From positions 160,984 to 224,983 of the forward strand of contig CAYPCX010000002.1 of NCBI GenBank assembly GCA_964409365.1: 64,000 bases of DNA, read 5' to 3'. Under the pieces are notes generated by a model. It worked only from the letters and a program-made list of their open reading frames with translations, made no database searches and was not told the DNA's origin. How positions within the stretch are numbered: position 1 is the first letter of the stretch; each line of letters starts with the position of its first letter. Below, one piece after another: positions 1 to 57,693 of this stretch. The DNA comes from an uncultured Planctomycetia bacterium (GTDB taxonomy: Bacteria; Omnitrophota; Gorgyraeia; Tantalellales; Tantalellaceae). The translations under genes were made by a program, and so were the position numbers.

Positions 1-1
1 T

Positions 2-18038: not shown

Positions 18039-21000
18039 ATGGACGCTTGGCAAATAATAAAGACTTGGCAAACAAAAAGACGCTTGGCAGATCATGACCG
18101 CTTGGCAGAGCATGGCCATGATGGCTTGGCACAAAAGAAGGCTTGGCAAACTATGAATACAAAGAACGCTTGGCAAAGTGATAAGAAATATTACATAGGG
18201 GAAGAAGATTCCATACAGGGCGTAGCGACTTGGCGTAAGCGCTATGCCTTTTTTCTTAAAATAGTCAGCATTATACTCATAGCTATATTCACCCACCAGC
18301 AGATCGGGTGGACGCAAGACGGACAACCGGTCTGGGCGCAAGCCAAGCTTTACAATAACACCTACTCCCCGGGCAATGTGAATGTCGACGGGATAGACGT
18401 GCCATATGACATAGCCAACAAGACCGAGGTCGTCATCAACGGCGGCAAGGAAAAGGTCATACACATCCAGGACGCGCACGCCTCGCTCGCGGCGCAGGAA
18501 TCCATAGTCAAGCTCCTGGATTCGCTGGTAAGCAACTATGACCTGAGCCTGATAGCCCTTGAGGGCGCCGAAGGCTACCTGGATACGTCCATTTTGAGCA
18601 CCTTCCCGGACAAGGATATCCGTGACGATACGGCGGCCCACCTGATGAGGGAAGGCCGGATGAGCGCCGGCGAGTTCTTCGCCGTCACGCGCGATACCGC
18701 CGATATCTGCCTTTACGGCGTGGAAAAAGACGAGCTTTACCGCAAGAACCTGGAAAGCTTCCGCGAAGTCGCCGCCGAACGCGCGAGCCTGGTAGGCCAT
18801 ACCAACGCGTTCCTCAGGCAGCTGAAAGCCCTGGAAGAGAAGATATATTCGGACGACCTGCGCCTTTTGAACGATAACGCCACCCTGCACAAGGACGGCA
18901 AGATCAGTTTCCTGGATTACTGGAAGAAGATCAAAAGCCTGGCCGAAAGGTTCAAGATAGATACAGGCGAATACGGTCAGCTTAACAGGCTCCTGGAGAC
19001 GATCGAGCTGGAACAGGAGATAGACTTCACCGAGGCTAATATCGAGCGGCGCAAGCTTGTCGACGAACTAAGCGGCAGGATGAACGAAAAAGAGCTCGAA
19101 GGCCTGGTACTGAAATCGGTGGCTTTCAGAGAGAACAAGGTTTCCCAGGCCGATTTTCATAATTACCTGGTCTCTCTGGCCGAGAACCACGAGGTCCCCC
19201 ACGAGGGATACGCGAACCTCATCAAGTTCGCGCAGTACGTCGCCCTGTACGAGACGATCAACATAATCGGGCTGTATCACGAGGTAGCCCTTTTCGAGGA
19301 CGCCATAAGGGAAAAGCTCTACCGCAACGACGACGAGCGCCGGCTGTACGAAATAGCCATCATGACGTGCATGCTGAAACGGCTGTATAACATGGAGATG
19401 ACCAATGGCGATTACGCTTTCATCAACGCTTACCGCAAGAGTTACAATGCCCGCGAGTTTGCCGGGTTCGCGAAGGACAAATGCCGCAAATACAAGGTCG
19501 CCATCGAAGGCGATTATGACCTTTCCGAGATGCTTTCGGGCATGGATGGAGCGATAGAGTTTTACAGGCTGGCCGAGAGCCGTGACCAGACCATGCTGGC
19601 CAATACCGTAAGGCACATGAGGGCCGAAGGTAAGCACGTAGCGGCGCTTATCACCGGTGGTTACCACACAAAGGGCCTTACGAAGCTGATGAAGGAAAAG
19701 GGCCTTTCGTATCTCGTCATAGCCCCCAAGTTCGAGGAAGGGAAGGAACGTCCGTACATAGCGGTCCTCACCGGCAAGAAGAAGCCTTACCAGAAGCTTC
19801 TCGAGTCCGGCAAATACCAGCTGGCGGTGGAGGCGTATTTTTCGGCGGAGAACTTCGAGGAAAAACTCGTAGATCTCAAAGAGATCATTTCCCGGAACCT
19901 TGCCATAAAAATGGCCGAGATCAGGGATGACAAGAAGATCCGGGGGGCGGAGGAAAGAAATTCCAAAATACAAGAGGGTTTGGACCGGACGAGGCGGTCC
20001 TGGATAGAGCTTTTCAGTCAAAGGTATGAGGCGCACTTTGGAGGGCTGGAGGGCCAAAAGCGGCTGGAAACAATGAACGTGAAACCGATCACCCCGGAGG
20101 AATTCGCGCGCACCATTAATGATGGCATCAAACTGAGCTATAGCTATGGAACAGATATAGTAATAGTGTTTCATGAAGATGAAGCTGAAGCTGAAGAAAA
20201 GGCTGTCATGGCGATAAAGGGACGCGACGGCCAGTATGAACAAGCCGATGAAGTTACCCCCGAAGACATCAAAAAGCTGAGCCCGAGCTCCCGGAGATTT
20301 TCTCCTGTGAAGAGTGCCAGCGAAGAAAAGGCAGGTAAAGAAGGCGGGGAAGTGCTGTATGAAGCCGACCTGTCGACATCCAGAGGAGAGCCGGTGGATA
20401 GAAAACTTCTTAAGAGAGCTTTTTGGAAGTCTCGTGGAGTTCCTCCGATTCCGTGGGGCAGGGTCTTCGAGAAATACGGACTAGAGTACGAAAAGGATTC
20501 CTTTGAGGACCTTAGAGATAGTCTCCCGGAAGCGCAAAAAGCGGACAGGGATCTAAATAAAATACTTGAGCTTGAAGAGATCGACAGACTTACCGACAGC
20601 CATATAGAGATCCTCAGCGGCGCGTTCGATACTATTACTTCCGGGTTGTATGAAGCCCATGTTTACAGCCAGCAGATCAATATTAAGCGGGGTATGAACA
20701 GCTTGCTCGAGCTTACCCCGGAAGGTGAACTGGAACTGGACATCTGTCTTCTGCGAGCGATCGATAAAGAGGTGAAAGGAAATGCGGAGAATATAGGAAA
20801 ATATATTAATGCCCTGGCATGGATGCTCGAGCATGAGCTCTGGCATATCCTTATCAGGTCCGATGACGTGATCGCGGAAGAGCTTGCGGTTATCGCCCTG
20901 AATGTTCATGACTTCCTTATCATGGAACCGGAGACCCAGGAGGCGCTTCTCTGGCTTATGGACAATGCGAATAAGAACGACATAGACGGCAAGAACTTCG

Positions 21001-24000
21001 ACGTGATCCTGAAAGACGCGAGGGCAGCTTTTGAGGCCCAGGGCGGTGATGCGGAGGACGAGGAGAAAGCACGGCAGGTAGCCCTGGGAAGTTTAGGAGA
21101 ATATTTTGATTATCTTGTCAGGATAGGTTCTGTTTCTCGTGAAGATGCCGCAAACAGGGACCCTAAAGTGGAAACGGCCCGGGGTTTATATGACGATCTG
21201 GAGAAGATCGCAGTGTCCCGGAGGGTAAATAAAATAAAGATCTCGGCGCAGAAAGAACTGGCCACTGTAGAAGAACTGGAAGCCGCCGGTAAAAAGCTTA
21301 AGAATGATGCGATGATCCAGAGGGTCGTAAAGCCGGTCTTGGAACTGAAAGAGGCTGCGAGAAAGGCAGGAAAGAGGATAAGCGAGGACGACGAAGGGTT
21401 GGTGTGGGACTATAAAGCGGCAGAAGCGAGTGTAGTGTCGGGTATTGCGTTCATCGAGCGCCGGGAGAAGATCAGGGCCGCGATAACGTTGGCAGAGGCA
21501 GGAACGTCGACCCTGGATGATCTTAAAGACGCTCATAAAGATCTCACGGGACCGGAGATGGCAGATATGTTCAAAGGTTCCATGACAAGAAAATATGAGG
21601 ACTTGGCAAGAGATTATCAGAAAGCGGTGACCGGCCTGGAAGAAGCTATTGCTAAAGCGGAAGCAGCTGGAGAAGAGGTAACAGCTGATGAAGTGAAGGC
21701 AGCCGGTGAAGCATCGGAGGCAGCGCTTCAGGCGATACAAGAGATACAAAGTGCGGAGACAGCACTTCAGGCGCAAGCGTTACGGACGATAGGGGAAATA
21801 AGAAGTCGTATAGTAAAAGCTGAAGAACTGACTATAGGGGAGCTCGAAGTTCTCAAGGGCAAGCTTGAAACCGATCCAACGATCCAGTCGGCTCTTGAGA
21901 AATACCCGGAGAAAATAAAAGGAGAGTATAGATACGCAGAAATATTTATCGAAAGCAATATTAAATTCGTCGAGATCCAGGAGAAGGTAAGGGCTGCAGC
22001 GGCCTTAATAGATAACAAAGAAGGGAGAACTCTTGAGGCGCTTGGAGCGGCTCAAAGAGAGCTCGCCGGTATCAGCATGCCCCGTGATCCGCGATCCCCG
22101 AAATACATAAAACTGAAAAAAGAATGGGAGAACGCGAAAAATAGGGCACAAGCGTTCCAGGCGATAGGGGAGATACGGAACAAGGTATCAATGGATAAAA
22201 AGCCGACCGCAAGGAAACTTGAAGAAGTCAGGGAGGACCTGGAAGGGCTTATGGAAGAACCTGCGTTCCGGAAAGCTGTCGGGGAATACCCGGATGTAAG
22301 CGAGGAATATAAATTGGCGAAAATAATGATCGGCAACGATATCGACTTCGTCAAGACCGGGGACCAGATAATGGCTGCGATAGAATCGGCAGGATCGGCA
22401 GTGAGCGCAAGTAAAAGTGAGAGCGGAATGTCGGCCTTGGAAACACTTGAAGCCGCTCGACAAAAGCTTGAAGACGTCCCGAAGGTCCACATGCCCGACT
22501 CAAGATACAAGACCCCGAGGTACGCGGAACTGGCGGGATTGTTGAGGGACGCGGAAACCGCGGTGGTGGACGCCATTAAAGAAAAGAAGGAAGCAGAGGT
22601 CGCCTGGGCCAAAGGCGAAATGCGGGATATAAAGGCATGGATAAATGCTGTTGTTGGAAGCGCCGAGAATCCGTCCGCAGTCGATCTTGGAGAGGTTGAA
22701 AAGGTATTTGAAAAATTGGGAGAAAATGATAGGTTTGAGGCAGCCGGGGCAATGAGTGGAGATGTGAAGGCGGAATATAATGGAATACAGGAGGAAATCG
22801 CAAGCCTGAAAGATAAGATCAGAAAACTGAAAGTGGCAGAGGACCTTAGAAAGACGGAGGAGCAGCAAGAGCGGTTTGATCGGGAAGAAGCGGAAGAAAA
22901 GCGTCAGCAAGAGATCCAGGACATGCTTGTTCGGATAGATACAACTGATGATCTGGAAGAGCTTACGGGTATAAGAAGCAGTGGAGAGTATCAGGAAGTC
23001 AGGTCAGATAACGTCCCGGGAAGCACAGACACTGTGGAGGACATATTTGAAAGAAAAAGAAGGAGTGTGGAAGAAGCGGATATCTACTGGGCACTTGGTG
23101 CGATAGATGCAGCCAATGAGATGGCTGAGCTTGTCAAGTTAGGGCTCAGCTCCAGGTTCAGGGCGGTCCAGCGTAAGGAGATTCCTTCCGCGATGAGAGA
23201 ACCTGTTGATGAAACAGTAGCAGAGGGCAGGAAAGAAGCGGAAAAAGGAATGGTGATAAACAGGTATAATCACAGGAAAAATGAGATAGAAGGCATCGTA
23301 AAAAGCACCGAGAAAGGCACCGAGCGCATGGAACAGGAAGAGGCCGAATTTGCGGCAGATGCAGCGAAAAGCGAACAAGACAGAAGAGAAAAAGAGATCG
23401 CCTGGGCCAAGGGTGAAATACAGAATATAACAACGGCGATGGGTGTCGCTATCAATGAAGTTGTTGGCGAGGCCGGGAGGATAACTTTTGATTCTTCGCC
23501 AGCCGCAAGAGACATTATTACCGGGGCTGCGGATGCGCTTAATAACTTAGAAGAGAATAAGAGGTTTAACACGATCCTGGAAAACAACCAGGACGTGATG
23601 AATGGGTATAATGAGGCGTTTGATAAAGTTAGAGCCCGGGCTGCCGAGATAATGGGAATAGAGATCGCGTGGGCCGAAGAGAGAATATCGGATATAAGAT
23701 CTTTGATGAGTAACATTGTTGGCGGAACCAAGAGGTCGGATTTAGGTCTTAACGGAGTTTTGGCCGAGTATGAAAAGTTGGGAAAGAACGAGGATTTCAA
23801 GGCGATCAAAGAAAGAAGCGCGGATATAGCTGCGGAGTACGAGAAAATACGCGGGGGAATCGTGTCCTTGCAGGAAGAAATTAAAAGATTGGAAGAAGCG
23901 AAAAAGCGTCGCCAGCTTGCCCAGGATGAATTGGTAAGCATATCATTGGAACTTGATAGAATACGCGAAAAGGGACAGGTAAGTCTGGCTGATTTTGATC

Positions 24001-27000
24001 CTGTTGTGGCTGCCCTTAATGCGTTCCCGTTAAAGCACGAAGAGATCTTTGATATTAGGAATAAAAGCCGAGAGAACGATGTCATATATAATATGCACCT
24101 GTGCTTATCAAGAATGGTATTAGAAGAGATAGACAGAGTGAAGCAAGAGATCGAGGGGCGTAAGAAAGAGGCGGAAAAAGCAAAGACTGCATTAGAGCAA
24201 ATAAGTGGATCGGTAGCCACGCTCGAAGGTATGACGTATGGGGAGCTCAGGAACGCCCGGCAATCTCTTGTTGATTTTAGGGATAAGTTTCGAGATGTTA
24301 TTGCCGAAGATGACCAGTTAAGAAAAGGTTACGAGGCCATTAAGGAAAAGGTGGACGGTGCTATCGGGAGGATAGAGACGGCCATTTTCGGTGATACCGT
24401 AGAAAATATAGAAGCCGGAGTGAAGGAGCAGACCGGGGTCGATGTAGCTGCGGGGACCAAGCGCTCTCCGATTCAGAAAGGCGATGGTACTGACGAAAAT
24501 ATGGAACTGAAACAGCAGCTTATAGAAAGCCATAATGAAACTTACTGGGAAAAGTGCATAAGCTTGGCTAAAGAGGCAGGAAAAGAATTGGATAAGACAA
24601 TAAACCCGAAGTTTGTCAAAACGGTTTTTTATTCGTTTTATGACGCTTCTACCGGAGATGTGGAAAACCTGAGTCTGGAAGAGGTGACCGATTTGTGTGA
24701 AAAAAGATCGATCGTTACCAGTGATGCTGAGACTACGGCCAAGGATAGGATCAGGAACTTGCAGGTCATAAGCGACCGTAATGTTGAGATCAAAATGGTG
24801 TATGGAGAAGTGTGCGCGGAATGTGAGAGGTCGATCAACGCGTTGATAGGGTTTTTGCAAAGGATCGGAGGCGAAGATGAAAGTGACGTCCTTGGCGTGG
24901 ATTCAAATTTTACGCCGGTCAATGGTTTTCTTATTTCCTCTTCGGACGATAACCTGGTATGCCCCCTTCAGCACTTGGACGGAATATATGAGCGGAACAT
25001 AGCCAGATTGAAGGCTACCCTGGAGAGCCAGCTGGGAAGTAAGGAGCACACGGCCAAAGTGGCGCTTATAGGGCGTTACAATAAGAGGATAAGAGGAAGA
25101 TGCGAAGAGCTCGCGAACGATCTGGGGATAGCACCTGGATACGGCAGTGCGATCGCCGAGGAGTTCTATAGCATAGATCCGTCCTTCCAAGAGCGGGGAG
25201 TAAATGCGGTCATAGCGGAGTGCGAGGCAAAGTCGAACGCCGTAAAGAATGAGGGAGAGGTCCGCAAACGCATAGCGAACAAGAAACTCATCGATGACAG
25301 CAACAGCAGGATAGAGGCGGAATATGGCGGGTATCTGAACGCGTTAAGGGAAGAATGCGGCCAGGCCGCGCATGCCGCATTTGGAACGGTCAATGTTGAG
25401 GATTTTTATGTCGCCGATTCCGCGGAAAACCTGGATCTGCCTGAGCAGGAATTACAAGCCGTGGTTGAAGGTAAACAGAGTGAACTGGCAACTACAGTAG
25501 ATAGGTTTATCCAGAGGAAAAGAGAGATCGATAGAGCGAATGCGACGATCAGGGCGGCGTTCATCATTTGCAATCCAGGGCTTACAGACGCTGAAAAGGA
25601 GAATCTCGAGGCAACCAACCCTCTTAATTTTATTGACGCGAGTAACCCTGAATTTTATCAGGCAAATGTGAATGTAGACGTATTGTGCGGTCTTCATATA
25701 GTAAGCGTTCCGTTAGCCGCTTCGTCTGACCAGGCAACTGAAGCGGCGGATGCCACGAAAGAAATGTTGAAGCAGATTCTCGCGGATGAGTTCGCCAAGA
25801 ATTATAGCGAGAAAACCAAAGAAGAGTGGCCGGATGAAGTGAGTGCCCCAGAAAGTTTTCTTATCACCGCCGATGATGTCGAGGAAAGGGAAAAGGCACT
25901 GGGAGCAGAGATTACGCAAGAGGATCTTGCAATTTTATGGGTAGAAAAGAATACCGTGATCTCGGAATATTTTGCAGGAAGATCAGCCGAGGAAATAAAA
26001 GAGGAATTTGCTCAGTACATCGCCGAGGCGAAGCCGCAACCCGCACAGACAGCACCGGCCCCCGCGCCGGCTCCGACACCGACACCAGTCCCCACGCCGA
26101 CACCGGCGTCCGCGGCAGCGGTAACTTCCGAAAAAGTCATAGCCGAAACGGTTAATGGGTATATTGAGCCCGCCAATGGAATGACTGATGCGGTTTTCCA
26201 TGTGCAGTATAGGAGAAAATATGGTATTGAATTGCCGAAGGGACCGGAAGGAGTTAAGAAAGCACCGCGGTTTCATATTACGAAAGAAGACAAAGAGATT
26301 CAGGAATTTATAGATGAACTTAAAGCGAGACCGGAATTGATGCTGGAACAATTAAAGAATGAGGCACTATCCTTTGTAACCGGTCTTCATGGAGCGCGTA
26401 GCGGCCAAATCGAGTCTTATTTCAACCTTATAGAAGGTGTTAATACGGACCTTGTCGAGATCTGGGGAAAATGTGTAGAACAGGCCGGAGAGATCCCGGA
26501 GATGCTCCTTGTTACAGAAGATGATGCCCTGGCATGGGCGACAACGCCGGAGTTTGCTAAGACCGATGTGCATGAAATTATCGCCGAAAAAGTGAACGAA
26601 ATAGAGATGTGGGCGCCTTGGCTTAATCCGGTCAGATTGGTGAGCACGCCGGAGAGATTAGGGGATATCCAGCCGTCGGATGACGCGGGCGGCGAAGGCT
26701 ATGGCGAAAGGGCATATCCGAACCAGAATGCCAGGATTATAGATGAACATAATGTGGCGGTCAGGGCACTGCATGATGAGTATCTGGAACAGGTGGGGTC
26801 TGAAGGAGACAGTCTTAACGGGCTTTGGGAAACTTTCCCGGAGGGTGGAATAACGGATGAGGAAAAAAGAAGGGTTATCAATGTCGCTTTCGGGACATAT
26901 TTATACATGCAGCCTACGGAGGACCTCTTGGGAGAGATGGATGAAGAGGCTCTGGAAAACTTAAGGCAGGACTGCGAGCAAAGAATGAAGGATGCCGCTA

Positions 27001-30000
27001 ATCCGGGCGCGGTCTTTGGGATCGTCCAGGAAGTGGTCGCCAAGCTCGAACTTATCGATAATTATAGAAGGCAAGTCAAGGGGATGATAGATGACTTGAA
27101 TCAGTCTTTGAAAGGGCTCTCTCCGGAAGAGAGGGAGGCGAAGAAGGAACAGGCCGCGGAACTTCTTACCTTGGATGTGGATAAACATTCCCAGGGGAAC
27201 ATGGAAGAACATATAGATGCGATAGTGGAAAGGGTGAACGCCAGGCGTGACGCGATCAACGAAGCGGTCGCTGAAATAAAGGGAACGGAGAAGGTCGAAA
27301 TGGCACCGCTGGTGGCTCCGCCGCTTAGGGCGCCGCCCGTTGCGGAAGAGCCGGCCCCTGCCCCCGCAGAAGAGCCGACCCCTGCCCCCGCGGCAGAACC
27401 GACTTCTGCTCCAACGCCACACGCACCAGCTGAACCTTCAGCACCGACACCGCCACCGGTGCAACCGCCCGCGCCTCCGACAACACCGCCTGCGGCGTCA
27501 ACACCGCCCGCACCGGGAGCCGACGGGCTTAACCAGACCGAACGCGACCTGCTTAACGCGGCAAATACAGTAACGGACGGGAAGATAACTTCCTACAGAA
27601 AAGGCCAGGTCGATGCCATGCGCCTCCTTAAACAGGGTACGTTCGTGGAATTAAGAACAGGAGGCGGTAAGACGCTTACCCTTGGTGGGGCCGCGCTTTC
27701 GCGGTTCAAGGAAACAGGGGAATCGGTCTTTATTATGACCCATGAAGACGACCTGACCAGACAGGCCATGGAAAAGGACCAGATGGGAGAGATCCTAAGC
27801 AAGTGCGGGGCCAAAACAGGGTTTATAGTCAAAGATGCAAGAGGTAATGAACGAGGGTATATCTACGAGAACGGTACAGGAAGATTCGCGAAAGAGGTGG
27901 AAGAGGTTTACGAAAACTGCGATATCATATACGCGAAATGGGATATAGTCGTCCACCGTCATCTGCGCGAGAAGATAGGCGGCGATGACGTCAGAAAGGT
28001 GCTGAGCGGCAAAAAGCGTTTTAACCTGTTCGACGAGGCGGACCTCATGCTGGTCTTCGGCTCCGCGACGCCGGCCGTTATCCAGGGCGATGAGCTGGAA
28101 GGAACGGACAAGCGCCTTCGCGTGCGCGAGATAATAGACAGGGTGGCCGCCGAGATGGTGGAGAAAAAGGAAGGTTATCACGAGCGGGAAGAGAGCGAAG
28201 AAATATTCTTAGACTACGACGGCAAGACCAAAAGCAAGATAGACGATGCTTTCAGCGGGTACAGGAACGATCAGGTGATAATGAACATGGTGGAGACGGA
28301 ATGGGACTTTTTCCTGATCGACGCGATCAAAGCCCACCGTTTTTATAAAGAAGGAGAGCGTTACAAGATCGGCGAGCCGGACGAATCCGGGAACAGGGAA
28401 GTGATCGTCATTGATGAGCAGACCCAGGCTCCCAAACCGGGAATGACGTTCGGTGAAGGCCTGCACCAGGCGGTAGCCATAAAGGCCGCGGCGGAACACA
28501 AAAACCTCAGCATTAATATCCCCGCTGAGACGTATACCGGCATGTCGGAGACCATAGTGCAGTTCCTGAACAGCGACGTCGTCAGCGATTTTGCCGGAGC
28601 CAGCGGTACGATGGAGATCCCCAGGCTGGAAAGCATATATCCCGGCAAGAAAGTCGAACAGGTCAAAGGTATAGACGAAAAGCTGAAAAATGAAGGATAT
28701 AAAGGTTTTGAGACCAAGGCCGAAAAATGGCAGGGTATCCTGGAAAGCCTGAACAGGCGGATCGCCGGGAATCACCCGGTCCTGATCAAGGTCGAATCGG
28801 ACGTCGAGACCGAAAAATTAAGGTACTTTATCTGGACGGGCGTTCTCGGCATGACATATGACCTTGATCCGGAGCTGAGGGAAAGACTGGAGAAGGATAA
28901 AGACCTGCAGGACATGATACGGGAGGCAAGAAAGAACAGGCAGCTTGTAGACCAGCTGAGAGAGAAGTTCATAGAAAAAAGCGTTATTATCAACACGGCT
29001 GACGCGAGGCATCCCGGGGAATTCGCCAGGGCGATCGATCAGGCGGGGTACGCGAACGTTATCACTATAGCCACGAACATGGCTCATAGAGGAATAGACA
29101 TAGAGATAAAAGGCAAGTATCTTAACGCGGACGGGACCGAGGGTGTTGAAGTACCCCCCGTGGAAGAATTGTCGCCGGGGCTGCACGTCATATCGGCTTA
29201 TCTCGACGAATCGGAGGCCTTCGAGATCCAGACGATGGGACGCGCCGACAGGGGCGCGCACCAGGGGTCATGGGAAGGCCTGTTCTCGCTCCCGGAAACA
29301 AAAGGCCGTTTTGGCGCCGAGAGGACCGAAAGGATATTTATCGCGCACGAGACGCTTTTAGAGCAGCAGATCAGCGGGTTAAGGGCTGCCGTGAAGAACG
29401 ACGACAAAGACGCGATAAAAGGACTCATAGGCGAGATCAGAGATCGTATCGTGAGCGAACAGAACGAGAATGACAGGAAAAGGCGAAAGCATGAAGACCG
29501 CGTTTTCGGTTACCAGGAAGAACTTTTGCATTATGGCGAAGTAATAGCCGAAAACACAGAGTCTTTCAGGATCTTTCTTGTCGATATAAACGCGGTAGAC
29601 GCGGCTACAGCTGTTGAGATGCGGGATGAAGATGTGGAGGAATTAAGAAAGATATTCCTGGAACTGATCAGGAAGGAGCTGCAGAAGTTCCAGACCGAGC
29701 AGCAGATCAGCAGGAACCGCCTGGACAGGCTGGCTGCCGAGGCGGCGATCGGCTGGAAAGGGGCCTTCGGCCAATACCAGAGCGAATCGGACAAGATCAT
29801 CAGCGCGGGGCAGAACCTTGACGACAGGCTGAATAACGTTATAGAGGATTTGAGTATAGCAATAGCTAATAGCATGAAACGCCCCCTTTCCGAGGTCAGG
29901 GAAACGGAAAGGAGGCCGCTTATCTCGGATAAAGGGCTTCAGCAGGTAAAGGCTATCTTCCTGATAGTCGGGTTGTGCGCGTTCCTCGCGTTTGTCGGGG

Positions 30001-33000
30001 TAGGGCCCGTAAGAGGGATGCTGTTACCCGCCCTGAACGCTTTCGTGAGGGCCCACCCGGCACTTGCGGGCGTGATCGCGGTCACTCTTTTCATACCGAC
30101 GGTCCACCTCAGGCAGATCTACGCCAAGAAGATAGGGGCCGTTGATGAGACCACCGAGAGGCTAATGCCTTTTACGGCCGGTTACGGCGAAGGCGATCTC
30201 AGGAAGTCTTTTCAGGGCTGGGCGATCGTGAACCTTTTGCGTATCCTGGCGGGGCCGAGCCTTTATGCGGGGGCGGGCATGGTGATAGTTTCGATAACCC
30301 ATCCTATCCTGACCACGGCGTCACTGGCGGTCCCCGTGATGCCGATGGCCGTCGCGCTTATTTCCATTGGCCTGGCCATCGCGGCCAATATCGCGCTGAT
30401 ACAGATGTTCAAACCCGAATTTGAGAAGAGGGCAAAACATGTAACTGCGGATTCCGACCAGCTGCAGAGCGGTTTCAACGCTTTTGTCAGGACGTTGGTC
30501 ATAGGATTGGGGATACTGTTCGCCATCCAGATCGGGGACGGCATGGTAGTAAAGACGCTCCTGTCGGTAGCGGCGGTAGCTCTTTCCGCTTACGTTGCCA
30601 GGACCATAAGGATGAAGGCGGACGAAGGTTATTACAAATCGGCCGGGCATATACATACCGGTGTTATCCTCGGGCTGGGCGCCACGATAGCCGTGCTCGT
30701 AGCCGCGTCGCTTCTGGGAGGAGCCGCCATAGCCGGGTACGCCCACCCGATAATGAAAGGTGTCGTGGCGGTCCTAGCAATAGGCACGATCATATCCCAG
30801 TTCGTCCTCGCGGGCAAGCTGGCCAAAGAAGCGAGAAGGCCTCTTATCAAGGAAGGAAAGGCCGAAAAAGCCAGGTGGCGCGGCCGGGCCGCTTTTATCA
30901 GGTCGTTTGTCCCGAATGCCCGCACCGTGTTCATGTATGGCGCTATTATATGGAGTTTTTACCAGTGCGGGGGGATCGTTCCGATGCTGCTGTACGTGGG
31001 TATCCCGGCCGCTATCGTCACTTACCTGGTCCATAGGTACAGCGTAAAGATCGAGAGAAGGTTCGGGAAACGGGTCTCGAGGATAGTTACCAGTATCGGG
31101 AATAAGATGGTCATGGCATCCGCCGTGGTCACGCCCATTGTCCTTTACCCGGCTGCCGCTTACGGGGCGGAAGAACTGAAGAAGAAGCTTGCCGTAAGGC
31201 AGGAAGACAAGGTCGAGGCCCTGCTCAGGCAGCAGGAATATTCACCGGAACAGCTCGCCGGTTTAAAACGTTTGCGCAAGAATATAGGCAGGGTCTTTGA
31301 TAAGGTTAAATCCGGCAGCTGGCAGAGGGCGGTCGAAAAAGACAAGGCAAGGGAGATCGCCGCGAAAGTGACCGCGGTCGAAAAACTTATCGAAGAAGCC
31401 AAAAGTGAGCGAGAGATCAGGAAGATAAAGATGCCCAAGGACATCCCCGCCGAATTCCGTGCCCATCTGAGAGAAGTGAAACTCGAGAAGCTCAAGAAAC
31501 TGAAGACCAGCCTGGTCCTCGCCGAGCAGATGGCCGCGAAAGCCCTGGCGGAACTTGATCCTATAGAGGTGCCCGGTTCGTATCCCGTAAAGTGGAAACA
31601 GCGCATCGAGGATATATGGAACGGCAAGGATCCCGAAGTGGGCATACACGACGTGACCCTGTTGATGGCGACAGGCGTTTTGGATATCATGGCCAGGGCC
31701 AAGACCCCGGAAGAGATTGACGCCGTAGGACTTCCGGCCTTTTTCTCCCCAGAGGTGGAAAAGTTCGTGGAAGAAGTCAAAGCCGATAAGCAGAATTACA
31801 GAAAGATAGTGGACATGCTTCTCGCTGCGAGAGCCAACCGCGCCAACGATATATTTGGGACGGTAAAAGTGCCTGTAGGTATCCCGGTCGACTGGGCACG
31901 GCGCGTCAACGGCGTAAGACTGGACCAAAAGGAGTTAGGAAAGACCCTGAACAGGATACTGTCCGCGGAGACCGAAAAAGACCTTGACCGGATACACGTT
32001 CAGCCGGGGGAATTACCCATGGCCTGGACCGATTCCCTGTATGAAATGAAGCCCGAACAGCTGGCATTAAGAAAGATCATGCAGCGCATAAAGAGCGCCA
32101 AGACACTGGAAGAGCTCGAAAAGGTGGATGTGGCCGGCGGGATCCCCCCGAAATGGAGAACGCGCGTGGAAAAGATGAAAGCGGACCTTATAAAGGTCAG
32201 GAAAGCCCTCACGTTCGTTATCGAGGCCGAGACCCTGGAAGAGCTCCAGCGCATGAAGATACCGGAAGACCTTCCTGAAGAATGGAAGGAGGACATCAAA
32301 AAGATAAGGGATGACCAGATCGAGCTAAGGAAGGTCCTTGCCCGGATCAGGGACGTGGAGAAATATGAGGATTTCGAAGCGCTCGAAGCCGTAGAGGTCC
32401 CGATCAGCCTTCCTGATGAACTGAAGGAACGCGTTGAAAAAGTCCGAGATGATCAAAAGAAACTGCTCGAGGCGGAATTCGCCCTGGGCAGGCTCAGGGC
32501 CGCGGAAACACCGGAAGACCTTGCGCAAATACGGGAAGACCTTGAGATGCAGGAAGTGCTGAAAGATTTCCCCATTCATATCGAGAAGGGAGAGCACCTG
32601 GCCTACGAGATCAAATCTTTGCTCGCGTCGAAGAAGAAGAGGCTGGAAAACGCGACTTCCAGGAAGAAAGCGGTGATAGATAAACTGGTAGAAGGGTTAT
32701 ACAAAGAAACGGTCGCTTTCGGGAAAAACATTGATGCGAGTTTCAAGGAGACCGTGGAAACGTTGGAAGAAAACCAAAGGTCCGCAGTGAGACGGTTGGC
32801 CCATATAGATCTGGCCAAAGGATATGGCGGGAAGTTAGCGGAGGTCATGAAAACTATAGCGGCCGCAGAAGATCAGGATAAACTCGACAGGATAAAGATC
32901 CCCGCGGGTATCGCTGCCGAAGATAAATATGAACTCGAGCAATCCAGAAAAGAGCAGATGGAATTAATTAAGATCCGTGCCAGGGTAAAAGGCGTCGCGA

Positions 33001-36000
33001 CGTCGGTGGACTTTGTTCAGGAGAGACTTGAAAAGCTCGAAAAAACGGTGCCCGAAGAGCTTGAGAACGCGGCAGCAGGCGTTGCGCGCGAGATACACGC
33101 CAGGGTCCTGGAGGTCCTGCAGGAGGCCAGAGATGCCGTCAGCAAGAAGGACTTTGACGGGGCCACGGAAAAGATGCAGCATGCCAAGTATCTGACCAAC
33201 GTACTGGTGGTCTTTATGGAATCCGGTTTACGTATTGAAGGACTGGACACCAAAAGCCTGCTCGGAGAGCTGGAAGCCGTTAACAAAGGCAGACGAGCGG
33301 CGTTCGAAGGTAAAGAGGCGAAGGAGGATATCAAACTGCTGAATAAAGAGACCGAGAGGGAAAGAAAGGCCATTGACGAAAGCAAAAAGAGACTGGACGC
33401 CGCCAAGTACGAGTTCAGGGCGAAAGAGATAAGACTCGAGAGCGAAAGACGGAGCATCAGGGAGCGTCTGGAGAAGGCCGGGCTCGGGAAGATCGAGAGT
33501 CCGACGGGAGCGGGGTATGAGATAGGCGGCATGTTCGGCATGGTGCTTACGGCCGGTCCCGGAGATTCGGGCAAGATCGAGGAAATTGAGCACTACAGGG
33601 CCGCCGGCGCCCTCATGGGGGAAGAACTCGACAAGCTGATAAAGGAGAAGAAGGTAAAGTTCTATTATAAAAAGGATGGCAAAAAAGAATATGTAACACC
33701 CGACAAGGCGATCGCGTTCTCTATGGCCACCCACGCGGAATATATGAAAAAGACCTATAAGGTGCACCGCGGGTCGCCGAGCGAGCCGCTCTGCGTCCTG
33801 AAGAGGCAGCTTGGCGGAAAACCCGGCAGGGCAATGATCGTGATGGATAAGAGAACGCTGCTTGAGCTTTACAAGAGGGATTTCAGATTTTTCGATAAAG
33901 AAGGCAAAAGGATATACATGCGGCAGATGTGGCGCCGCATCCAGGGCGATTTCATAGTGACGGAGGACGAGAAAGTCCCGGTCAGGCCGACCAGAGAATA
34001 TTACGGTGAGAAGTTCGAGGACAGGAAGACCAGGAAAAAGATCACGGAACATTCCACTTTCATATGCCCCGAGGAAGGCGGAACCTTCAAGGTCGCGGTA
34101 GCTCAGAAGCTGGATTGGTTCGAGGACTACAATGGCCTGAAACGGGAACATGTGGTGTTTGACGGCCGGAACAGTCCCGCTTTTTCCTTTCCCCTGGATG
34201 ATACCGTCACTTATTACGATGGCGAAGATTATGAGATCGGCACGGGCGACGTGTTCGACCTGGAGATGTACGCCAGTGTTTACAAGAAAGGCGATGTCCA
34301 GTATGACCTGGTTGACGCTTACATGGTCGAGTTAAGGTACAAGATGGAAGGCGGCAAGAAGAAGTTCGACCGCATTCGCGTGTTCCGCAGTGAAGAAGAA
34401 GCGAAGAAAAGAAGGGCCGAGTTCGGTAACGATTTCCGCGACGCGAAAACGAAAGAGACGGCTTACCCGCAGGAGAAAAAGATCCCGGGTCTGAAGAGAA
34501 AGCCGGTCTTCGACCTGAAGGCGAGAGGTGTCTCCGGGATAATGAGGGACGAGTTCATCTGGGGAGCCAGGAAGTTCGAAGATTTCCATTACGGCTTATC
34601 GCTGGGCGGGGAAGGTCCGATAGCATACGGCGAAAAGGGGTGGTTCGGCGAAGAGAAGAAGGTGTTCAAAGTCGCGGAACAGCAGGAATATCACAAAGCG
34701 GGATGGAGTTTTTACAATAAAGAAGATGAAATAATAGATCATAATGATCCGGAACTCTTCGCCGAAGCCGTCAAGGCGCGCGATGCCCACGGCAGGGAAT
34801 GGAAGCTGAAGCCTACCATTTTTATAGCCGCCACGGAAAAAGACGAGAACGGCAACAGAGAGTACAGGGTTGCCGGCACCCTCGAGGAATTCGTACAGAC
34901 GTTCGGCAAGTCGTTCTTCTCAGATTCAAAATTCACGGATAAACACGGGAAGGAAGTCTCTATAGCTCCGTTGCAGGAAGCGTATCTGAACTCTTTCGAA
35001 GGCGCGAAGATGAAGGAACTACAGATGACGCTGAACCTGTTCTACACGGGTCAGGAGATATCCAGGGTCAGGGGTGTCGTTGACGGGCAGGAGAGGGAGT
35101 ACGAGGTCTATCACGGGGAGGAAGCGAGGGAAAAAAGACAAGAACTAGTGAAAAAATATCCGGAGTACTATAAACCTTTAAAGGACGGAAAAGTGCCCAA
35201 GATGCTGTGGGTATGGAAAGGCAAAGGGGAAGACGGGCAGGGGCTGATGGCCGCGATCACGATCTGTGACATCGAAGACGTGCTGGGGTACTTGAAGAAT
35301 AAAAGGCTCAATCTTGTGCCGCTGTATGAATACACGGGATTCGATGAAGAAGGCAAAAAGGTGAAGAAGTATGCCGAGATATTCACCGAGGAACAACTGA
35401 AAGATATCCGGAAAAAGGACAGCTGGAAGAAGTTCGAAAAGATCAACGCCATGATCGAGGTCGCGAGAGCGAGATACAAGGTACGGGAAAAACAGAGGAT
35501 CTTGAATGCGCGAACGGAAGGTCTTACCCTGGAGGACGCGGTCGTTTTGGGCGCCATATACGGCCCGGACGCGCGGAAAGACCTTTTGAGCTACTGGCAG
35601 AGCGTTGCCGGTATAACACTGGAGGGATCCGGTGTGTTCAACATCATAGCGAAACTGAGTTTTACCATACCGCAGTTCGAGAACGCCGCGGGGGTCGACA
35701 TTTTCTTCAGGATAGATCCCGGCAGGGACGCCAGGATAGCCAATGCCAGGGAGATGGCCAACGCGCACAGGCACAGGTTCCAGAGAAAGCAGCAGATCAG
35801 GGCGCTTGATGTCGTTGATCTCTTCATGGAGATGCAGATCAACCGGGCACGTAAGGAATATGACGAAAAATCCATGAAGATATTCAGGGCCCAGCTCAGG
35901 CGTTGGGGACTGACGGACGAGCACCTCAGAAGGATCGAAGAAGGAAAGAACTGGAATGACGCTACTAATTTAGTGAAGAGCATTATAGGAAACAAGGGGA

Positions 36001-39000
36001 CACCCTCTGAACAGAGGGTGCTCAGCGAGATCAACGCGTGGATGGTAGCAAAGGCCAAGATGAAAGAATGTGACAGGAGGCAATCGGCCCTCCAGTCCAG
36101 GTTGAGCTCTCTGGGAGTGAATGTCGGAGAGATCAGCGAGAAAGACATGGACAAGTTATTGGATGGTCTGGAGGGTATGACCCCGGACAAGATCATTGCC
36201 ATGTTCGAGGCAAACGGCATTGTAGATAAAGGGGATAAACTTTCCCTTGACCTGCTGAGGGAGGAAGCGCGCAGGCGGGCGATGAGATGGAAGATCGAAG
36301 AAGCGCGCAAAGGGCCGTGGGTCTATTATCTCGGCGTGAGTTTCGGCATGCCTTATAAGGTCAAGCCGCTCTTCGGCATGGAAAGAAAAGGCGACCTCAA
36401 CAATTTTGAGCTGACCGTTCCCATGGCCAAGATACAGAAGAAACAGCGGGATATCGCCTTTTTGAGGGCGGTGAAGAGCCACAGGGAAGAAAAAGAGCTC
36501 CTGGAAGAGGTTATCCCCCAGATGGAGGAGATGATCGCCGCCATGGACGCTTATCTCGACGATCTTAACCAGGGCGTGAGGGACGTAACGGGAGCTTCAA
36601 GGAAGGGAAGGTTAGAGGAAAACGCCCGTAACGAGTTCATCGGCAAGGCGGAAAAGGTCTGGAGGACATTGAACAGCCTCAAGAAAGAGATGGCGAGGAC
36701 CATAGAGGATTATAAGATACGGCTTGAAGACCTTGAGGAATTCGTCGCTCCTGAGGAGGAAAGAGAACTGGTGCCCGGAAAGTACACCCGTGACATGGCG
36801 AAACGCGACGCTATTGTCAAGGCCGAAAAAAGCGGGGCCCTGGCTTCGGCGGAAGCCGATGAAGACAAGGCGCGCAGACTGTATCAGGAAGCCAGAGAAA
36901 AGCCGGCCCTTCTCATTACAAGGCTGGGGTATACGGGAGGAGGACCGAAGAACATAGAAACCAGTTTCCAGTTAAAGGGCCCGGGATGGAAGCATCTTGA
37001 GAAGTTCCTGGAGCTGGATGTCAGGATAGCGAAGCTTCAGAAGAAATATGTGAAAGAAAGACTGCCGTATGAAGTCCAGAAAGCTTACAGGAGGTGCCTG
37101 AGCGCGAAGGCGCGGGTAAAGAACCTGAGGATAGCCGTGGAAAAATGGGAAACGGCGCTTAAAGCCGCCGAAAAGCGCGGCGAAGTGGGTAAAGCAACAA
37201 AGATAAAATCCGAGATGGGAGAATGCGAGGTATTGCGCCGCACTGCTGAAAATAATCTTAAGAACGCCAGGATGGCCCTCGAGCATCTTACAGGCAAGAA
37301 GTTCGAGGAGCTTGATCCTTCTTCGCTGGATAAGCCGCTGAGGAAGCCCAACCCCAACCTGCGGCTGGAGATACTCAAGCTCAGGAAACAGCAGGCAGTG
37401 GAGATACTGAAGATGAGGGAGGACAACAGCCTGATCACCGCCCTGTTCAAGATGTGCTTTTCCAGTTTCAAGCAGGGAGAGGACAAGGATAATTTCGGCC
37501 TTACTTTTTCGGGAGATGTTTTTGAGTTCATCCAGAACGTGGATACCAGCCCCGAAGGTTTCGACGCTTTCCTGAAGAAGCAGAAGGTCCTGATAAGGAA
37601 GTGGGACAACCAGATCGACATGGAACGGGCCAGGGTCCGGGACTTTAAAGCGCAGAACGAAGCCGAACTTGACGCAGCAAGAGGGAACCTGAAGACCGCC
37701 ATTGCCGAAGTCGAGGCCGACAGGAAATATCTCGACAGCCTGTACAGGCTGTCGCTGGATCTCAGGTATGCCGGGGTGAGCCTGTACAATGAGATACTTT
37801 TCATGGAGGCCAAGCTTCAGAATTCCGTTAACAGCATGGAAGACGCGGTATACAGGTATCTCGATGCCCTTGATGATTGTGGTATGACCATGAACGCGGG
37901 CGTGATCCTCAGGAATTTTGCCCAGCGGTCCGGTCTGGCCCCGTCCGCTTATAACGCGTGGCGCGCGAGGCTGGAAAAACGGCTGTTCTTCTACAACATG
38001 GGTCTTTCCGTGCGTTTCCAGATCTCCAAGTTCTTCGGCGCCGGTTCCCCGATAAAGAACCAGCTGGCCGCCCGCGACAACGCCATTTTCTGGGTTGACA
38101 GGTTATTGCACAAGATGGCCGGGGACGCCCAGTGGAAACAGTTCAGATATTACGACCCGGTAACCGGCCGTGCCAAGCTGAAGGACGATCATATAAACGC
38201 GTATCTGTACAACCAGAAGCTGGTATCACACATCGACATGATGAACGACCTGATGAGGACGGAAGAAGAGATCAGAAGGGCCGAGGCCAGGGCCGGCATA
38301 GAGCTGGGTAAATACAGGCCCAAGCCGACGTTCCCGACAATGCTTATAAACATCAAATTCAATCTTTTCAAGGACCCACTCAAGCAGGAGATAAAGGGTC
38401 ATATCGTAGAGCAGGAAGAAGCCCGCATGGCCGAGGAGGAATTGCGCGACGAGTCCAGGCTCGTGAACGTCGCCACGCAGTATGAAAATTCCAGACAGCA
38501 GGAGAACAGGTTAAAAGGGGAAATAAGGGAACTGGATATGGTGATCAGTTCCGCGGAAGATACCATAAAGCACCGCGATGAGACATCGTCCGAGAGAGGG
38601 ATCTACAGGCTCAAGACACTGAAACTCGAGAAGGAAAAGCAGCTGGCCAGGGCGGAGATGATGACGAAGTTCTTCCAGGGACAGCTCAAGGAAGAGATGA
38701 AAGGTCGCGCCGTGTTCGTCCTGGAAGACGGAACGCCGGTGGACGTCACTAAGATCGATGATGCCCAATTTAAGCGGTTATGGATCAAGTTCAGGAGAGG
38801 GTATTCGGCCCTCAAGGACCTGGATGCCGCTGTAAGGGAGTGGGAGGAAGTAAGCGCCCAGGTGGTCGCGGCCCACCCCGCCCTCAAGAGGATGAAGGCC
38901 CTGGTCAAGGAAGCGGAAGGCAATTACAAGCTGGCGGGTTTCTGGATGAAATTCAGCCCGGATGTAAGGATATGGTTCGGCCTGCCGCTTTCTTCGCCGT

Positions 39001-42000
39001 CGATAGGAGGGATTTCTATTGAGATACCCCTGGTCACCGATCATAAGAGGGAAACCGAGAATGTCATGGCTTATCTCAGCATGTCACAGGCGGAAGAGGG
39101 GGTATTGGACCTGTCGGAGCAGATGCGGGCGGAATTGAGGCAGTACAAGGACGCTATTTTTCACACAAGAGGACTGCTGGAAGACCGGGCCCGTTCACTG
39201 AGGCTCACTGCCGGGAATTTTGTGCTGACTTTCAACAAGTATGAAAGAAATGATACCAATATCGATGATGTACTTGAAAAGGCGCAGGAATGGGCGAACG
39301 CCCGTCAGGAGTTCATGAAGCTCACGACCAGTTACAACCGCCAGGTCAGGGAACTTTCGGCCATTTTACGCAAACTTGACGTGACGGTTCCCCGTGCTCC
39401 CGCCGCGTCCGGGCTTAAAGGTCTGGAAAAAGACAGGGGTTTTATAGCGGCCGTGGGGAATTTCATGGACAACCTGCCCAGGCCGGACGCGGCAAGATCC
39501 GCCGAATTCAGCAAGCTGACCCGGGACAGCCAGGTCCGCGCGTGGGCCCTGGTCTGCAGGGACCTTAAGCACAAGGACAGGGAAGAGGCCATAAGGTACA
39601 TGGAAGAGCTGACCGACAGGTTGCGCGAAGAACAGGAAATGCCGTTTGAAGAGGACCAGGGGATCAGGACCCCCGAGATGACCGATATAATGGGACTGGA
39701 AGAGGATCCATATTTCAATAAAGCGGTAGAAAGGTTTTTGCAAGTACTTGGCCCGCAGGCCACGAAAGTCATTTCACAAAAGAAAGGTATTACCCGGAAG
39801 GAATGGGTGCGCATGCTTGCCCAGCTTTGTAACACCCATCGATGTAAAACAAGGGAAGAGGCTGTACTTCACGTGCACGGAATGGCCATGTGGGCTTCTT
39901 CGCTTCTCAAGCGGTACAGGATGGTAGAGGGGAACAAGGAAAAGCTGCACAGGACGTTCCCGGATTTCCTGGGGACGTTCATCTACCCGCTCACGACGCA
40001 GGAGAAGTCCGGCCTTGTCAACCACCCGGAACGGGGCACGTACCCGTACCTGTTCAATATGTTAGGCCTTGCGGATTGGCTGGCGTTCTCCGATCATGTC
40101 AGGATGGATGTATGGGGTGAGGATGAGCAGACGGCGCGTAACAGGACGAGCGCGCACCTTTATGATCTGTTCGATAAACTTTCCGGAAAGGATTCTTCCG
40201 ATGACCGTTGGATAAGGATATTCAAGGAGGGCTTGAACAAGCTGGGAATGGACCTTACGGATGAAGACGTGAGACAGGCCAGATGCGGCGTGGCGGAAGA
40301 AACCTCCGGATTCATGGGGAAGCCGTACGAGGTAGGCAGTCCCGCGAACGCGAGGGTGCTGGATGTGTCCTTCCGGTTCAAGAACCTGGCGAGGATGAGC
40401 GATGAAGAGTTCGATAAAGCTATGCCCAAGCTTGAAAGGTTGCGCCCGATCGCCGAAAAGCATTTTACCCCGCGCCCGGGCACGCCCGAGTTCTACCGGC
40501 ACGAAGAGGCCGAGAGGCTCAGGGTCCTCATGAAGGACAGGGACACGCTCAAAAAGGTCGAAGATCCCAGCGATAAAGACCGCACCAGGCTTGAGAGGCT
40601 GGAGAAGCTTATCGAGGCCGAGAAACAGACCGTTTATGATTCCATACTGGCCATCAATCTTTTCAAGCTGTATACCGGGATAACGGAAGGATGCCGGAAT
40701 GAATGGGATTTCGAAGATAACGTGAGGTATCTGGAGGAAAAGATCCTTCCCCAGATGGAGGACGATAAAGGCGAGTTCCTGGCTGATTATGACGACCCGC
40801 TGTTCAACGCCCTCTATTTCGTAAATCACCGAGGGGAAGCATATCCCGCGAAGCAGAACGGCAAGCGCGTGACCTGTTATGTGGATGCCGCGAAAGGAGA
40901 GGTCTCGATCAATCGCGGCATGGATATATTCCCGTACGAAGTATGGAAAGGCGTTTTTGACGAAGAGGATTGGACGATAAAAGGAGAAAAGGACGAAGAC
41001 GGCAACTGGACCAGGCCCTGGCGCTTTCAAAAATGGGGTAAAGCGACAAAACTCCGTAATTTCCTTTTCCGACTGCCCGACGGCAGCAGGAAGGTCACGA
41101 TAAGGTCGGGCTACAGGCTCCCCCTGACCGAATACAACAAGGACGGGTCGGAAGCCAAGAAAGGATATATCTTCAAGGAAGAGGACAAGAACCGTCTGGT
41201 GGTCACCAGCGAGACCATAGAGACGGAAGAGTTGAAGCACAGGAAGGTCGAGGAAACGTGGGTGACTTTCTTTGATGATGATGAGAAGATCACCGTCTCC
41301 GAGGGCTGGGTCGCCGGCATAAAAGGCGAGGGTGAAAGCCTGAAGGCGGCGAAAGGGTTTGACGCTCCCATCAAGAGGGAAGAGTTCAGGCGCGTTTATG
41401 GCTGGAACAGGATCGAGGCTGAAATAGAAAGGATGAGGGACGAGAGGATAGCCCAGATCGGCGATCCCAACGTGAGAAGGGCCTTGAAAAGGGCCGTCAA
41501 GAAAATAGAGGACGTGGAGAGAAGGCTGTGGGAAGAGAAGGTTGACAGGACGAAGAGAGCGGAAGGCGAGGTCGAGAAAGACGTCCGGACGCGGACGGGT
41601 GCGAAGATACGGGCTTTAAAGGGCGAGATAGAGGAGCTTGAGGACGATGAAAAGTTCCAGACCAGAAGGAAAGAGGCTCTTATCGAGGCCAGAAGGGAAC
41701 TGCAACAGGTACGGGAAGAGAGAAAGAAGAAAGCGGAAGAGATCAAGAAGAGAAAAGAAAAAGAGAAAGCGCAAACAGACGAGGAAAAACGCAAAGAAGA
41801 AGAGACAATAAAACGCCTGGAAGGGGAGATAACGGTTCTTGAGGAACAGATCGAAAATAAGGAGGCCGCCGCGAGGAAGCTGCAGGAAAAGATAAAAGAG
41901 GCGACTCCCGTGACGACCGCGGCCGGATCCGGGGTTAGCGTCAACCTGCCCTGGAGGCATTACGGCGAGGACGTCGGGAACTATCCGGGTGCGACGCACA

Positions 42001-57510: not shown

Positions 57511-57693
57511 TAAACATATAATTAGCATATTAAAAAGTCAGAAATTTACCGTTTTAGGAGATGCGTTGATAATAGTATTATTATGCGATATTTAGACAAC
57601 GGGAAGGGATTTGTGCAGTTCGGGTAAGTGAACTTGTTTAATAAGATAGTTATATATTGTGATAAGTAATACAAAACTGAGAATATAAGGGTT

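Follow-up and report, generated by a model that had tools for sequence, protein, structure and literature searches.

A SecA-derived motor core fused to an orphan membrane domain within a 13,091-residue Omnitrophota protein

The 64,000-nucleotide stretch of contig CAYPCX010000002.1 analyzed here (hereafter the window) carries a gene for a protein of 13,091 residues, in the interior of which a genuine SecA homologue (residues 3168-3757) is followed by a helical region and a polytopic membrane domain. These parts, together with a short motif behind the membrane domain, are hereafter called the cassette (residues 3168-4423). The most economical reading of the cassette is that a permanently tethered, SecA-derived motor exports its own chain, and we consider the chance that this reading is correct to be about even. 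An initial annotation of the window had placed a SecA-like ATPase and a membrane domain at positions 27540-31170, which correspond to residues 3168-4378 of the product.

The gene itself is real. An open frame of 39 kb in DNA of 53% G+C cannot be due to chance, and its product has homologues elsewhere; a chance origin is therefore ruled out. Homologous giant open reading frames (ORFs) were found in 14 metagenome-assembled genomes (MAGs) of the Omnitrophota type. The coordinates of the gene and of the features discussed below are collected in Table 1.

The motor is a SecA core

Three SecA domains of Pfam matched the segment above their gathering scores and in canonical order, the second of them, SecA_PP_bind, being inserted in NBD1. 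The sequence motifs listed in the initial annotation (GGGKT, FDEADL, GLHQAV, NMAHRGID and GRADRG) are all present as quoted and also follow the canonical order. GLHQAV is found at residue 3474 and FDEADL at residue 3331, and the GLHQ motif is kept across the family. The best sequence matches in the Protein Data Bank (PDB) were SecA2 and SecA (E 1e-18 to 1e-11), with SecA2 at the top (1e-18). An AlphaFold2 model of residues 3168-3967, which was built from 66 sequences, showed a pLDDT of 79.3 and a pTM of 0.71. In this model the ten-residue blocks of NBD1, PPXD and NBD2 had pLDDT values of 70-97, those of NBD1 being mostly 84-97 with two blocks at 77-79, and the PPXD was folded. When the model was compared with the PDB by Foldseek, the top 36 matches were all SecA or SecA2, and the best TM-score, 0.55, was to the SecY-bound 6itc_A.

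It could be argued that the module is a generic SF2/DEAD-box helicase domain that was misread as SecA. The generic Pfam DEAD model did reach 25.9 bits, just under its cut-off of 26, and ResIII gave a weak overlapping match. In contrast, SecA_DEAD scored 59 bits, the PPXD insertion, which is found only in SecA, and P-loop_SecA both exceeded their cut-offs, and the SecA structures matched the model with E values of 9e-28 to 3e-12, whereas ordinary SF2 helicases (DinG, MDA5 and others) began at 1e-9 or weaker. These facts leave a negligible probability for the generic helicase. The Pfam domains, the PPXD insertion and the Foldseek ranking thus agree with the earlier assignment to SecA rather than to an SF2 helicase.

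The motor is far from canonical SecA. Its identity to canonical SecA is about 24%, in comparison with 39-52% within the family. The family profile matched canonical SecA with an E value of about 1e-46, whereas matches within the family ranged from 1e-159 to 1e-260; the corresponding scores were 178 bits for canonical SecA and 548 bits for the family. NBD2 also contains a charged helical insertion of 47 residues that canonical SecA and the three closest relatives (P0001-P0003) lack.

The catalytic motifs were compared in about 26 family sequences of 39-52% overall identity. Walker A, G(G/R)GK(T/S), Walker B, D-E-x-D, and the motifs ASGT, AHRG(I/V)(D/N) and (G/K)R(A/G)DRG are kept in every sequence that covers them. 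The 13,091-residue protein itself has intact Walker A and DEAD residues, and the same holds for its arginine finger and motif VI. Judged by sequence, the module is probably an active ATPase that is kept by selection, in line with the apparently intact catalytic copy that had been described at first.

The motor, however, is a SecA core and not the complete SecA that had been claimed. No Pfam match to SecA_SW (PF07516), which covers the helical scaffold, the wing and the two-helix finger, was obtained at E<=0.1. SEC-C (PF02810) also gave no match, and the C.CGSG motif of the zinc tail was found nowhere in the protein. The SecA_DEAD profile is matched from its position 82 onward, and what comes before the match is the Pro/Ala-rich linker, the presence of which had been predicted correctly. 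The first ~60-80 residues of SecA are missing, and the N-terminal amphipathic membrane(lipid)-binding helix was not detected. The NCBIfam SecA equivalogs scored far below their cut-offs (PRK12904, 108.8 vs 814; TIGR00963, 99.5 vs 800), and the SecA2 models scored 76.5 or lower.

Between NBD2 and the membrane domain lies a conserved helical region of about 205 residues, which was modeled with low confidence as one long helix and a helix-loop-helix hairpin. The region is kept in relatives with E values of 1e-7 to 1e-35, and the conserved loop IGWKGAF coincides with the loop of the modeled hairpin. The hairpin follows the family pattern FQTEQQ..R.R..YL...G[VI][RK]GAF.Q..E. Both MAFFT and hhalign aligned it (FQTEQQ...G[VI][RK]GAF.Q) to the finger of SecA (LQ.ID...GI.LR.Y.Q) with equal spacing. 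When the helical region of the family was compared with canonical SecA C-termini, however, hhalign gave a probability of 0.6% and a score of 18.2. Reversing the alignment gave as high a score, and so did 18 of 200 controls with shuffled columns. The homology of the hairpin to the two-helix finger is therefore not significant and is kept as a lead only.

The membrane domain and the conserved cassette

Behind the motor and the helical region comes a membrane domain of about ten helices, as had been noted initially. In the hydropathy averaged over the family the helices are arranged in five hairpin blocks, and an eleventh hydrophobic segment (residues 4353-4370) is weaker but conserved. The domain belongs to no Pfam family and has no sequence relative in the PDB, where the best hit of a profile search was an unrelated protein (E 0.85). 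Neither a SecY-like sequence nor a SecY-like fold was found, the fold test having been made on a model of moderate confidence (pLDDT 66). The earlier statement that the domain is about the size of SecY is thus correct as a remark on size and is accompanied by no similarity to SecY. An internal duplication of the SecY kind (5+5) was looked for with hhalign and rejected, since no repeat exceeded a probability of 5%. Conserved polar residues (Q87, N178, Q315 and R356 in the numbering of alignment A3) lie in or beside the helices.

All the loops that connect the hairpins lie on the SecA side, and there are almost no loops on the far side. The family-averaged numbers of Lys and Arg in the loops on the SecA side are 5.8, 4.7, 1.6, 6.2 and 3.5 per sequence. 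Since these loops are rich in Lys and Arg, the positive-inside rule would place the SecA side in the cytoplasm, as an ATPase requires.

With the membrane domain (residues 3938-4397) as query, HMMER was run exhaustively against 1.84 billion representative proteins and found only 15 relatives, all of them large or truncated proteins. A word-indexed search with the alignment of the membrane domain gave no matches, probably because hydrophobic words swamped it, and a search with the SecA alignment of the family found no further members. Locus L016 from Actinomycetes was rejected as a family member, being an ordinary SecA of 978 residues. Related MAGs were searched for the pairing of SecA and membrane domain. 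The order of SecA-like motor, helical region and membrane domain was found in all eight proteins that extend far enough toward the N terminus, and it was also found in frame at each of the 12 species-representative loci that reach far enough in the 3' direction. The remaining loci end at contig ends and lie outside this count. In the 300-400 residues that flank the cassette on either side, almost no similarity was detectable among the relatives. Judging from these alignments, the cassette is the conserved unit, apart from the N-terminal domain described below.

The nearest relatives, which are 44-52% identical, are fragments and giant ORFs of Candidatus Omnitrophota MAGs, and no identical or close entry was found. 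Several of the MAGs that contain relatives are labelled "uncultured Planctomycetia". It is worth noting that in the MAG JBDRAX01 two contigs break inside the SecA-like module, one (L010) ending at residue 554 of the module and the other (L015) beginning at residue 549. Similar truncations affect most public relatives, and the fragmentation of assemblies hides such genes.

Topology and proposed export of the chain

The recognizable domains on the C-terminal side of the membrane domain are all of envelope types, both in the 13,091-residue protein and in its relatives, and no recognizable Pfam domain was found upstream of the motor. The cassette therefore seems to mark the boundary between inside and outside along the chain, and the constant downstream position of the envelope-type domains supports the reading of self-export. 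What recurs along the chain is an ATPase, then an inner-membrane domain, a glycan-related domain of the periplasm and finally a TolC-like domain. In the present protein the TolC-like OEP domain follows about 1,950 residues after the membrane domain. Only half of the OEP profile is covered by the match, and the assignment comes from Pfam profiles alone, since phmmer with this region found no TolC in the PDB. Further downstream, the glycoside hydrolase that had been predicted was recovered as a match to the Cellulase family of Pfam (glycoside hydrolase family 5, GH5). The "YD-like shell" that had also been proposed was not borne out, no Pfam match being found in residues 8650-10000. Four clusters of hydrophobic helices, which are unrelated to the membrane domain of the cassette, lie toward the C terminus. 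Because these transmembrane (TM) clusters start at residue 10034, an exported stretch of about 5,650 residues would be anchored at both ends.

The self-export reading can be described as follows. The cassette has three parts, namely the SecA-derived core (NBD1 with the PPXD clamp, and NBD2), a helical stalk or hairpin, and the orphan inner-membrane domain of 10-11 helices. The motor would be cytoplasmic and would be held permanently at the membrane by an anchor of its own, in place of the lipid-binding N-terminus, the wing and the SecB/zinc tail, with which free SecA finds membrane and substrates. The absence of these targeting features from the motor thus fits a tethered motor that has no need to search for either. 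Movements of the clamp driven by ATP would push the extracytoplasmic segments of the very same chain, namely the ~5,650 residues from the anchor to the next TM cluster, through the inner membrane. Since the anchor shows no channel-like features, the route would most likely be the housekeeping SecYEG channel. The exported part would then span the periplasm and reach the outer membrane by way of the TolC-like domain. The self-contained auto-translocation device of the initial annotation is consistent with this reading as far as self-export and the fused, conserved membrane domain are concerned, while a SecY-like channel found no support.

Several observations weigh against self-export by a tethered motor. 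The first concerns the N terminus, where hydropathy scans showed a signal-peptide-like hydrophobic segment. With no clear TM segment between it and the motor, this N terminus would naively put the ATPase outside the cytoplasm. The segment consists of 14-15 hydrophobic residues preceded by Lys or Arg, both here and in relatives with complete N termini (P0070, P0071 and P0074), and similar segments were found in P0069, P0070, P0071, P0074 and P0076. An AxA-like site is present in some of them and is clear in P0070. No convincing TM segment was found by hydropathy between the N-terminal segment and the motor, and P0070, P0071 and P0074 are arranged alike; the only weak candidates are residues 944-962, inside the HExxH domain, and 2544-2562. 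NCBIfam gave no matches for the N-terminal 700 residues or for residues 701-3167 and 4378-6321, and was thus of no help for localization. It is possible that a TM segment was missed, that the segment at the N terminus does not work as a signal, or that the N-terminal ~3,000 residues are exported and the Pro/Ala linker is left threaded in a channel above the motor.

The other three observations concern the cassette itself. The eleventh membrane pass is weak, with a peak hydropathy of 1.52, and is followed by K-rich sequence. The scaffold helix and the two-helix finger, which canonical SecA needs for its coupling to SecY, were undetectable by sequence, in a region where the AlphaFold2 model is of low confidence. 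In addition, motif V/Va of NBD2 is altered from the canonical HESRRID to DESEAFE. Within the family this variant is conserved, and the regulation of the motor may differ from that of SecA.

The altered motif V/Va, the undetectable C-terminal translocation domains of SecA and the contradictory topology predictions would also suit a module that has nothing to do with export, such as a device that pulls or remodels an envelope protein, a signaling element or a non-catalytic scaffold left as a structural remnant. We regard this as quite improbable. The residues for nucleotide binding and hydrolysis and the PPXD are strictly conserved among relatives of 39-52% identity, as one would expect of an active ATPase that still clamps polypeptides, and the position beside the exported segments fits export.

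Another interpretation is that the orphan membrane domain is itself a protein-conducting channel, and that the cassette is a self-contained translocon that works independently of SecYEG. The stretch of the giant chain threaded through it could be the Pro/Ala linker, for instance, or the segment that follows the last helix. The motor and the membrane domain are always fused and co-conserved, and the conserved polar residues in or beside the helices would be suitable for such a channel. A threaded Pro/Ala linker would settle the paradox of the N-terminal topology, and a private channel might be favored because a chain of 13,000 residues parked in SecYEG would be costly. The domain shows no internal pseudo-symmetry, however, and the nearly loopless far side of its hairpins looks like an anchor more than a gated pore. 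The fold test, made at a pLDDT of 66, is weak in both directions. We consider this interpretation unlikely.

A more far-reaching form of this interpretation, which we regard as speculative and quite improbable, is that a single-chain export machine spans the envelope without SecYEG and has the cassette as its base in the inner membrane, with the motor lying under its own conduit of 11 helices. Non-hydrophobic parts of the chain would stay threaded in the conduit, candidates being the Pro/Ala linker N-terminally and, toward the C terminus, the segment behind the last helix. Of the whole protein, only the motor would then be a globular domain in the cytoplasm, everything else being outside it, and the TolC-like domain of the same chain would give passage through the outer membrane. 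If true, the machine would represent a novel type of autonomous secretion system, and the signal-peptide-like N terminus would be explained.

It is also conceivable that the tethered motor acts in trans, as an accessory translocase that exports other proteins such as the neighboring giants or effectors, in the manner in which SecA2 serves dedicated substrates. The top PDB sequence match was SecA2, and some SecA2 proteins are without the wing domain, for example that of Mycobacterium tuberculosis (PDB 4uaq). The window contains three giant genes in tandem, and the cassette was not found in the in-window parts of the first (5,821 residues) or the third (first 2,110 residues). Export "or of accessory proteins" has also been mentioned for such motors (West-Roberts et al. 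2023, bioRxiv 10.1101/2023.11.21.568195). On the other hand, the fusion lies at the inside-to-outside boundary of the motor's own chain in every relative, for which action in cis is the simplest explanation. The NCBIfam scores (SecA 108.8, SecA2 76.5 or lower) show no specific affinity to SecA2, and genes for SecY2 or Asp-type partners are not visible in the window, which holds giant genes only. Action in trans thus appears distinctly unlikely.

Table 1. Positions of the cassette and of other features in the window and in relatives
Feature	Residues	Window position	Strand	Evidence or remark
Giant gene carrying the cassette	1-13,091	18039..57314	+	single uninterrupted ORF, 13,091 residues (ORF listing)
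Signal-peptide-like hydrophobic segment	71-89	18249..18305	+	hydropathy scans; K/R on N side
Conserved N-terminal domain, IHIQDAHASLAAQ...ALEG...GGYHT	90-700	18306-20138	+	common to third giant gene, P0069, P0071, P0074, P0076
Pro/Ala-rich linker, directly before motor	3085-3166	27291..27536	+	82 residues, 29 of them Pro and 19 Ala
NBD1 (Pfam SecA_DEAD)	3190-3386	27606..28196	+	59.2 bits, cut-off 24.6
Walker A, GGGKT	3208-3212	27660-27674	+	invariant in family
Walker B, DEAD (within FDEADL)	3332	28032-28043	+	invariant in family
PPXD (SecA_PP_bind), inserted in NBD1	3367-3479	28137..28475	+	36.2 bits, cut-off 23.5
NBD2 (IRA2; P-loop_SecA)	~3540-3757	28656..29309	+	48.7 bits, cut-off 27
Charged helical insertion in NBD2, 47 residues	3601-3647	28839-28979	+	alignments
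NMAHRGID	3680	29076-29099	+	in NBD2
GRADRG	3734	29238-29255	+	in NBD2
Conserved helical region (long helix, helix-loop-helix hairpin)	3758-3962	29310..29924	+	AlphaFold2, low confidence
Hairpin loop IGWKGAF	3904	29748-29768	+	conserved; coincides with AlphaFold2 loop
Orphan polytopic membrane domain, five hairpin blocks (10 helices) and weaker eleventh segment	3963-4375	29925..31163	+	
Conserved motif after membrane domain, EYSPEQLAGLKRLRKNIGRVFDKV	4400-4423	31236..31307	+	by eye in relatives; weak phmmer matches of the segment after the membrane domain
TolC-like OEP domain	6325-6419	37011..37295	+	Pfam OEP 34.7 bits, cut-off 22
GH5 (Pfam Cellulase)	~8248-8336	42780..43046	+	25.2 bits, cut-off 23.5
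Four C-terminal hydrophobic-helix clusters	10034-10670, 11474-11833, 12079-12252, 12641-12683	48138-56090	+	
MdoG after membrane domain				relatives P0072, P0073, L005
Glycoamylase and DUF3131 after membrane domain				relatives P0079, L012
PG_binding_1 after membrane domain				relatives P0081, L012
HlyD-type Biotin_lipoyl_2 after membrane domain				relatives P0077, L015
OEP 1,600-2,200 residues after membrane domain				relatives L012 (28.0), L003 (27.1), L005 (20.8, below cut-off)

The conserved N-terminal domain gave no match in Pfam, in NCBIfam or among PDB sequences. Inspected by eye, it may resemble the Tiki/TraB superfamily. The motif HELWH, which resembles the HExxH motif of zinc metalloproteases, lies upstream of the cassette at 20826-20852 (residues 930-938), and P0003, P0074 and P0076 have similar motifs (HEAVH, HELQH and HEYEH) ahead of their SecA modules; the HExxH region of the present protein has no Pfam match. 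Behind the cassette, at about 31500-33100 (residues ~4480-5010), the protein contains degenerate repeats of about 40 residues with the pattern (I/V)P..(L/I)P..W. There phmmer ties residues ~4719-4796 to residues 4932-5009, and no tandem repeats of note were found at the DNA level.

The three giant genes, all on the + strand, fill the window, the two others occupying positions 1-17530 and 57670-64000. The first is listed at 65..17530 (5,821 residues), has TPR matches only and is probably open from the start of the window. The third starts near 57670 and runs past the end of the window, with at least 2,110 residues, and its N-terminal 550 residues are homologous to residues 66-608 of the 13,091-residue protein (E 1e-128). 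GC skew is positive in every 2-kb interval of the whole window, at about +0.06 to +0.30, and AT skew is positive in all intervals but one (-0.01). Purines thus predominate on the coding strand of the three giant genes.

Known systems and the meaning of the cassette

The central idea of the initial annotation, which knew of no described architecture of this kind, is a rediscovery, because the architecture had been reported by West-Roberts et al. (2023, bioRxiv 10.1101/2023.11.21.568195). According to that study, most giant Omnitrophota genes carry divergent SecA DEAD helicase and preprotein-binding domains without scaffold and wing, and adjoining transmembrane regions may anchor them. The SecA domains of giant proteins form a separate long-branched clade, and a normal SecA and SecYEG coexist with them in the genomes. 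Export of the giant protein itself was proposed, and topology predictions were described as unreliable for these proteins (West-Roberts et al. 2023, 10.1101/2023.11.21.568195). A cluster of 20 proteins with a PF07517 architecture has been described since (Nielsen 2026, bioRxiv 10.64898/2026.06.07.730766). Full-text literature searches found no further paper on giant proteins that bear SecA.

The present protein is a new, divergent member of this reported kind. It shares with the others SecA_DEAD and SecA_PP_bind within a TM-rich giant protein, an adjoining TM region, the undetected scaffold and wing, the strong divergence from canonical SecA, nearest relatives in Omnitrophota MAGs and the same hypothesis of self-export. 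Its motor groups with the SecA of giant proteins at 44-52% identity, as against ~24% to canonical SecA, a grouping made by identity and profile scores and not by a tree. Whereas the study of West-Roberts et al. focused on proteins of 30,000 residues, the present one has 13,091. Three points go, as an increment, beyond the text of the two preprints, namely the conservation of the catalytic motifs across the family, the specific, conserved orphan membrane partner that is always fused in the same order, and the order of the downstream domains, in which MdoG, PG-binding or glucoamylase domains and TolC-like OEP domains follow the membrane domain. The presence of NBD2 here is also additional to that text, and OEP, TolC, HlyD and MdoG are mentioned in the text of neither preprint.

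Canonical SecA of Escherichia coli and Bacillus subtilis and related structures (1m6n, 2fsf, 3din and 6itc) have the same order of NBD1, PPXD and NBD2, the same Walker A and B, arginine finger and motif VI, and the same fold. They are free-standing, whereas the motor here is fused and tethered by a polytopic domain. SecA2 (6t4h, 6sxh and 4uaq) is comparable as a divergent, trimmed paralogue that works beside the housekeeping SecA for special substrates; it is, however, a soluble stand-alone protein of about 780 residues, and no SecY2/Asp partners were seen here. SecY/Sec61 also has about ten helices in about 400 residues beside a SecA-type motor, whereas the membrane domain here has neither similarity to it in sequence, profile or fold nor a 5+5 repeat, and its loops all lie on one side. 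By analogy, the chain order of cytoplasmic ATPase, inner-membrane domain, periplasmic region and TolC-like OEP resembles that of type I secretion and tripartite efflux exporters, as do the HlyD-type lipoyl motifs in the periplasmic region of two relatives (P0077 and L015). Here, however, one polypeptide holds all the parts, the ATPase is of the SecA and not the ABC type, and the membrane domain is unrelated to ABC permeases.

As to how very small-celled bacteria make and export proteins of 10,000 to more than 100,000 residues, a SecA motor wired to its substrate is the only concrete clue so far, and it has so far been a domain annotation in two preprints. The window provides a compact example of such a motor. 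The comparison set adds to it catalytic motifs that are intact throughout the family, a specific orphan membrane partner and downstream domains that follow the order of the envelope. With about 1,250 residues, the cassette is small enough for expression and assay. Provided that the motor acts in cis, a SecA that belongs to its own substrate would become known here for the first time.

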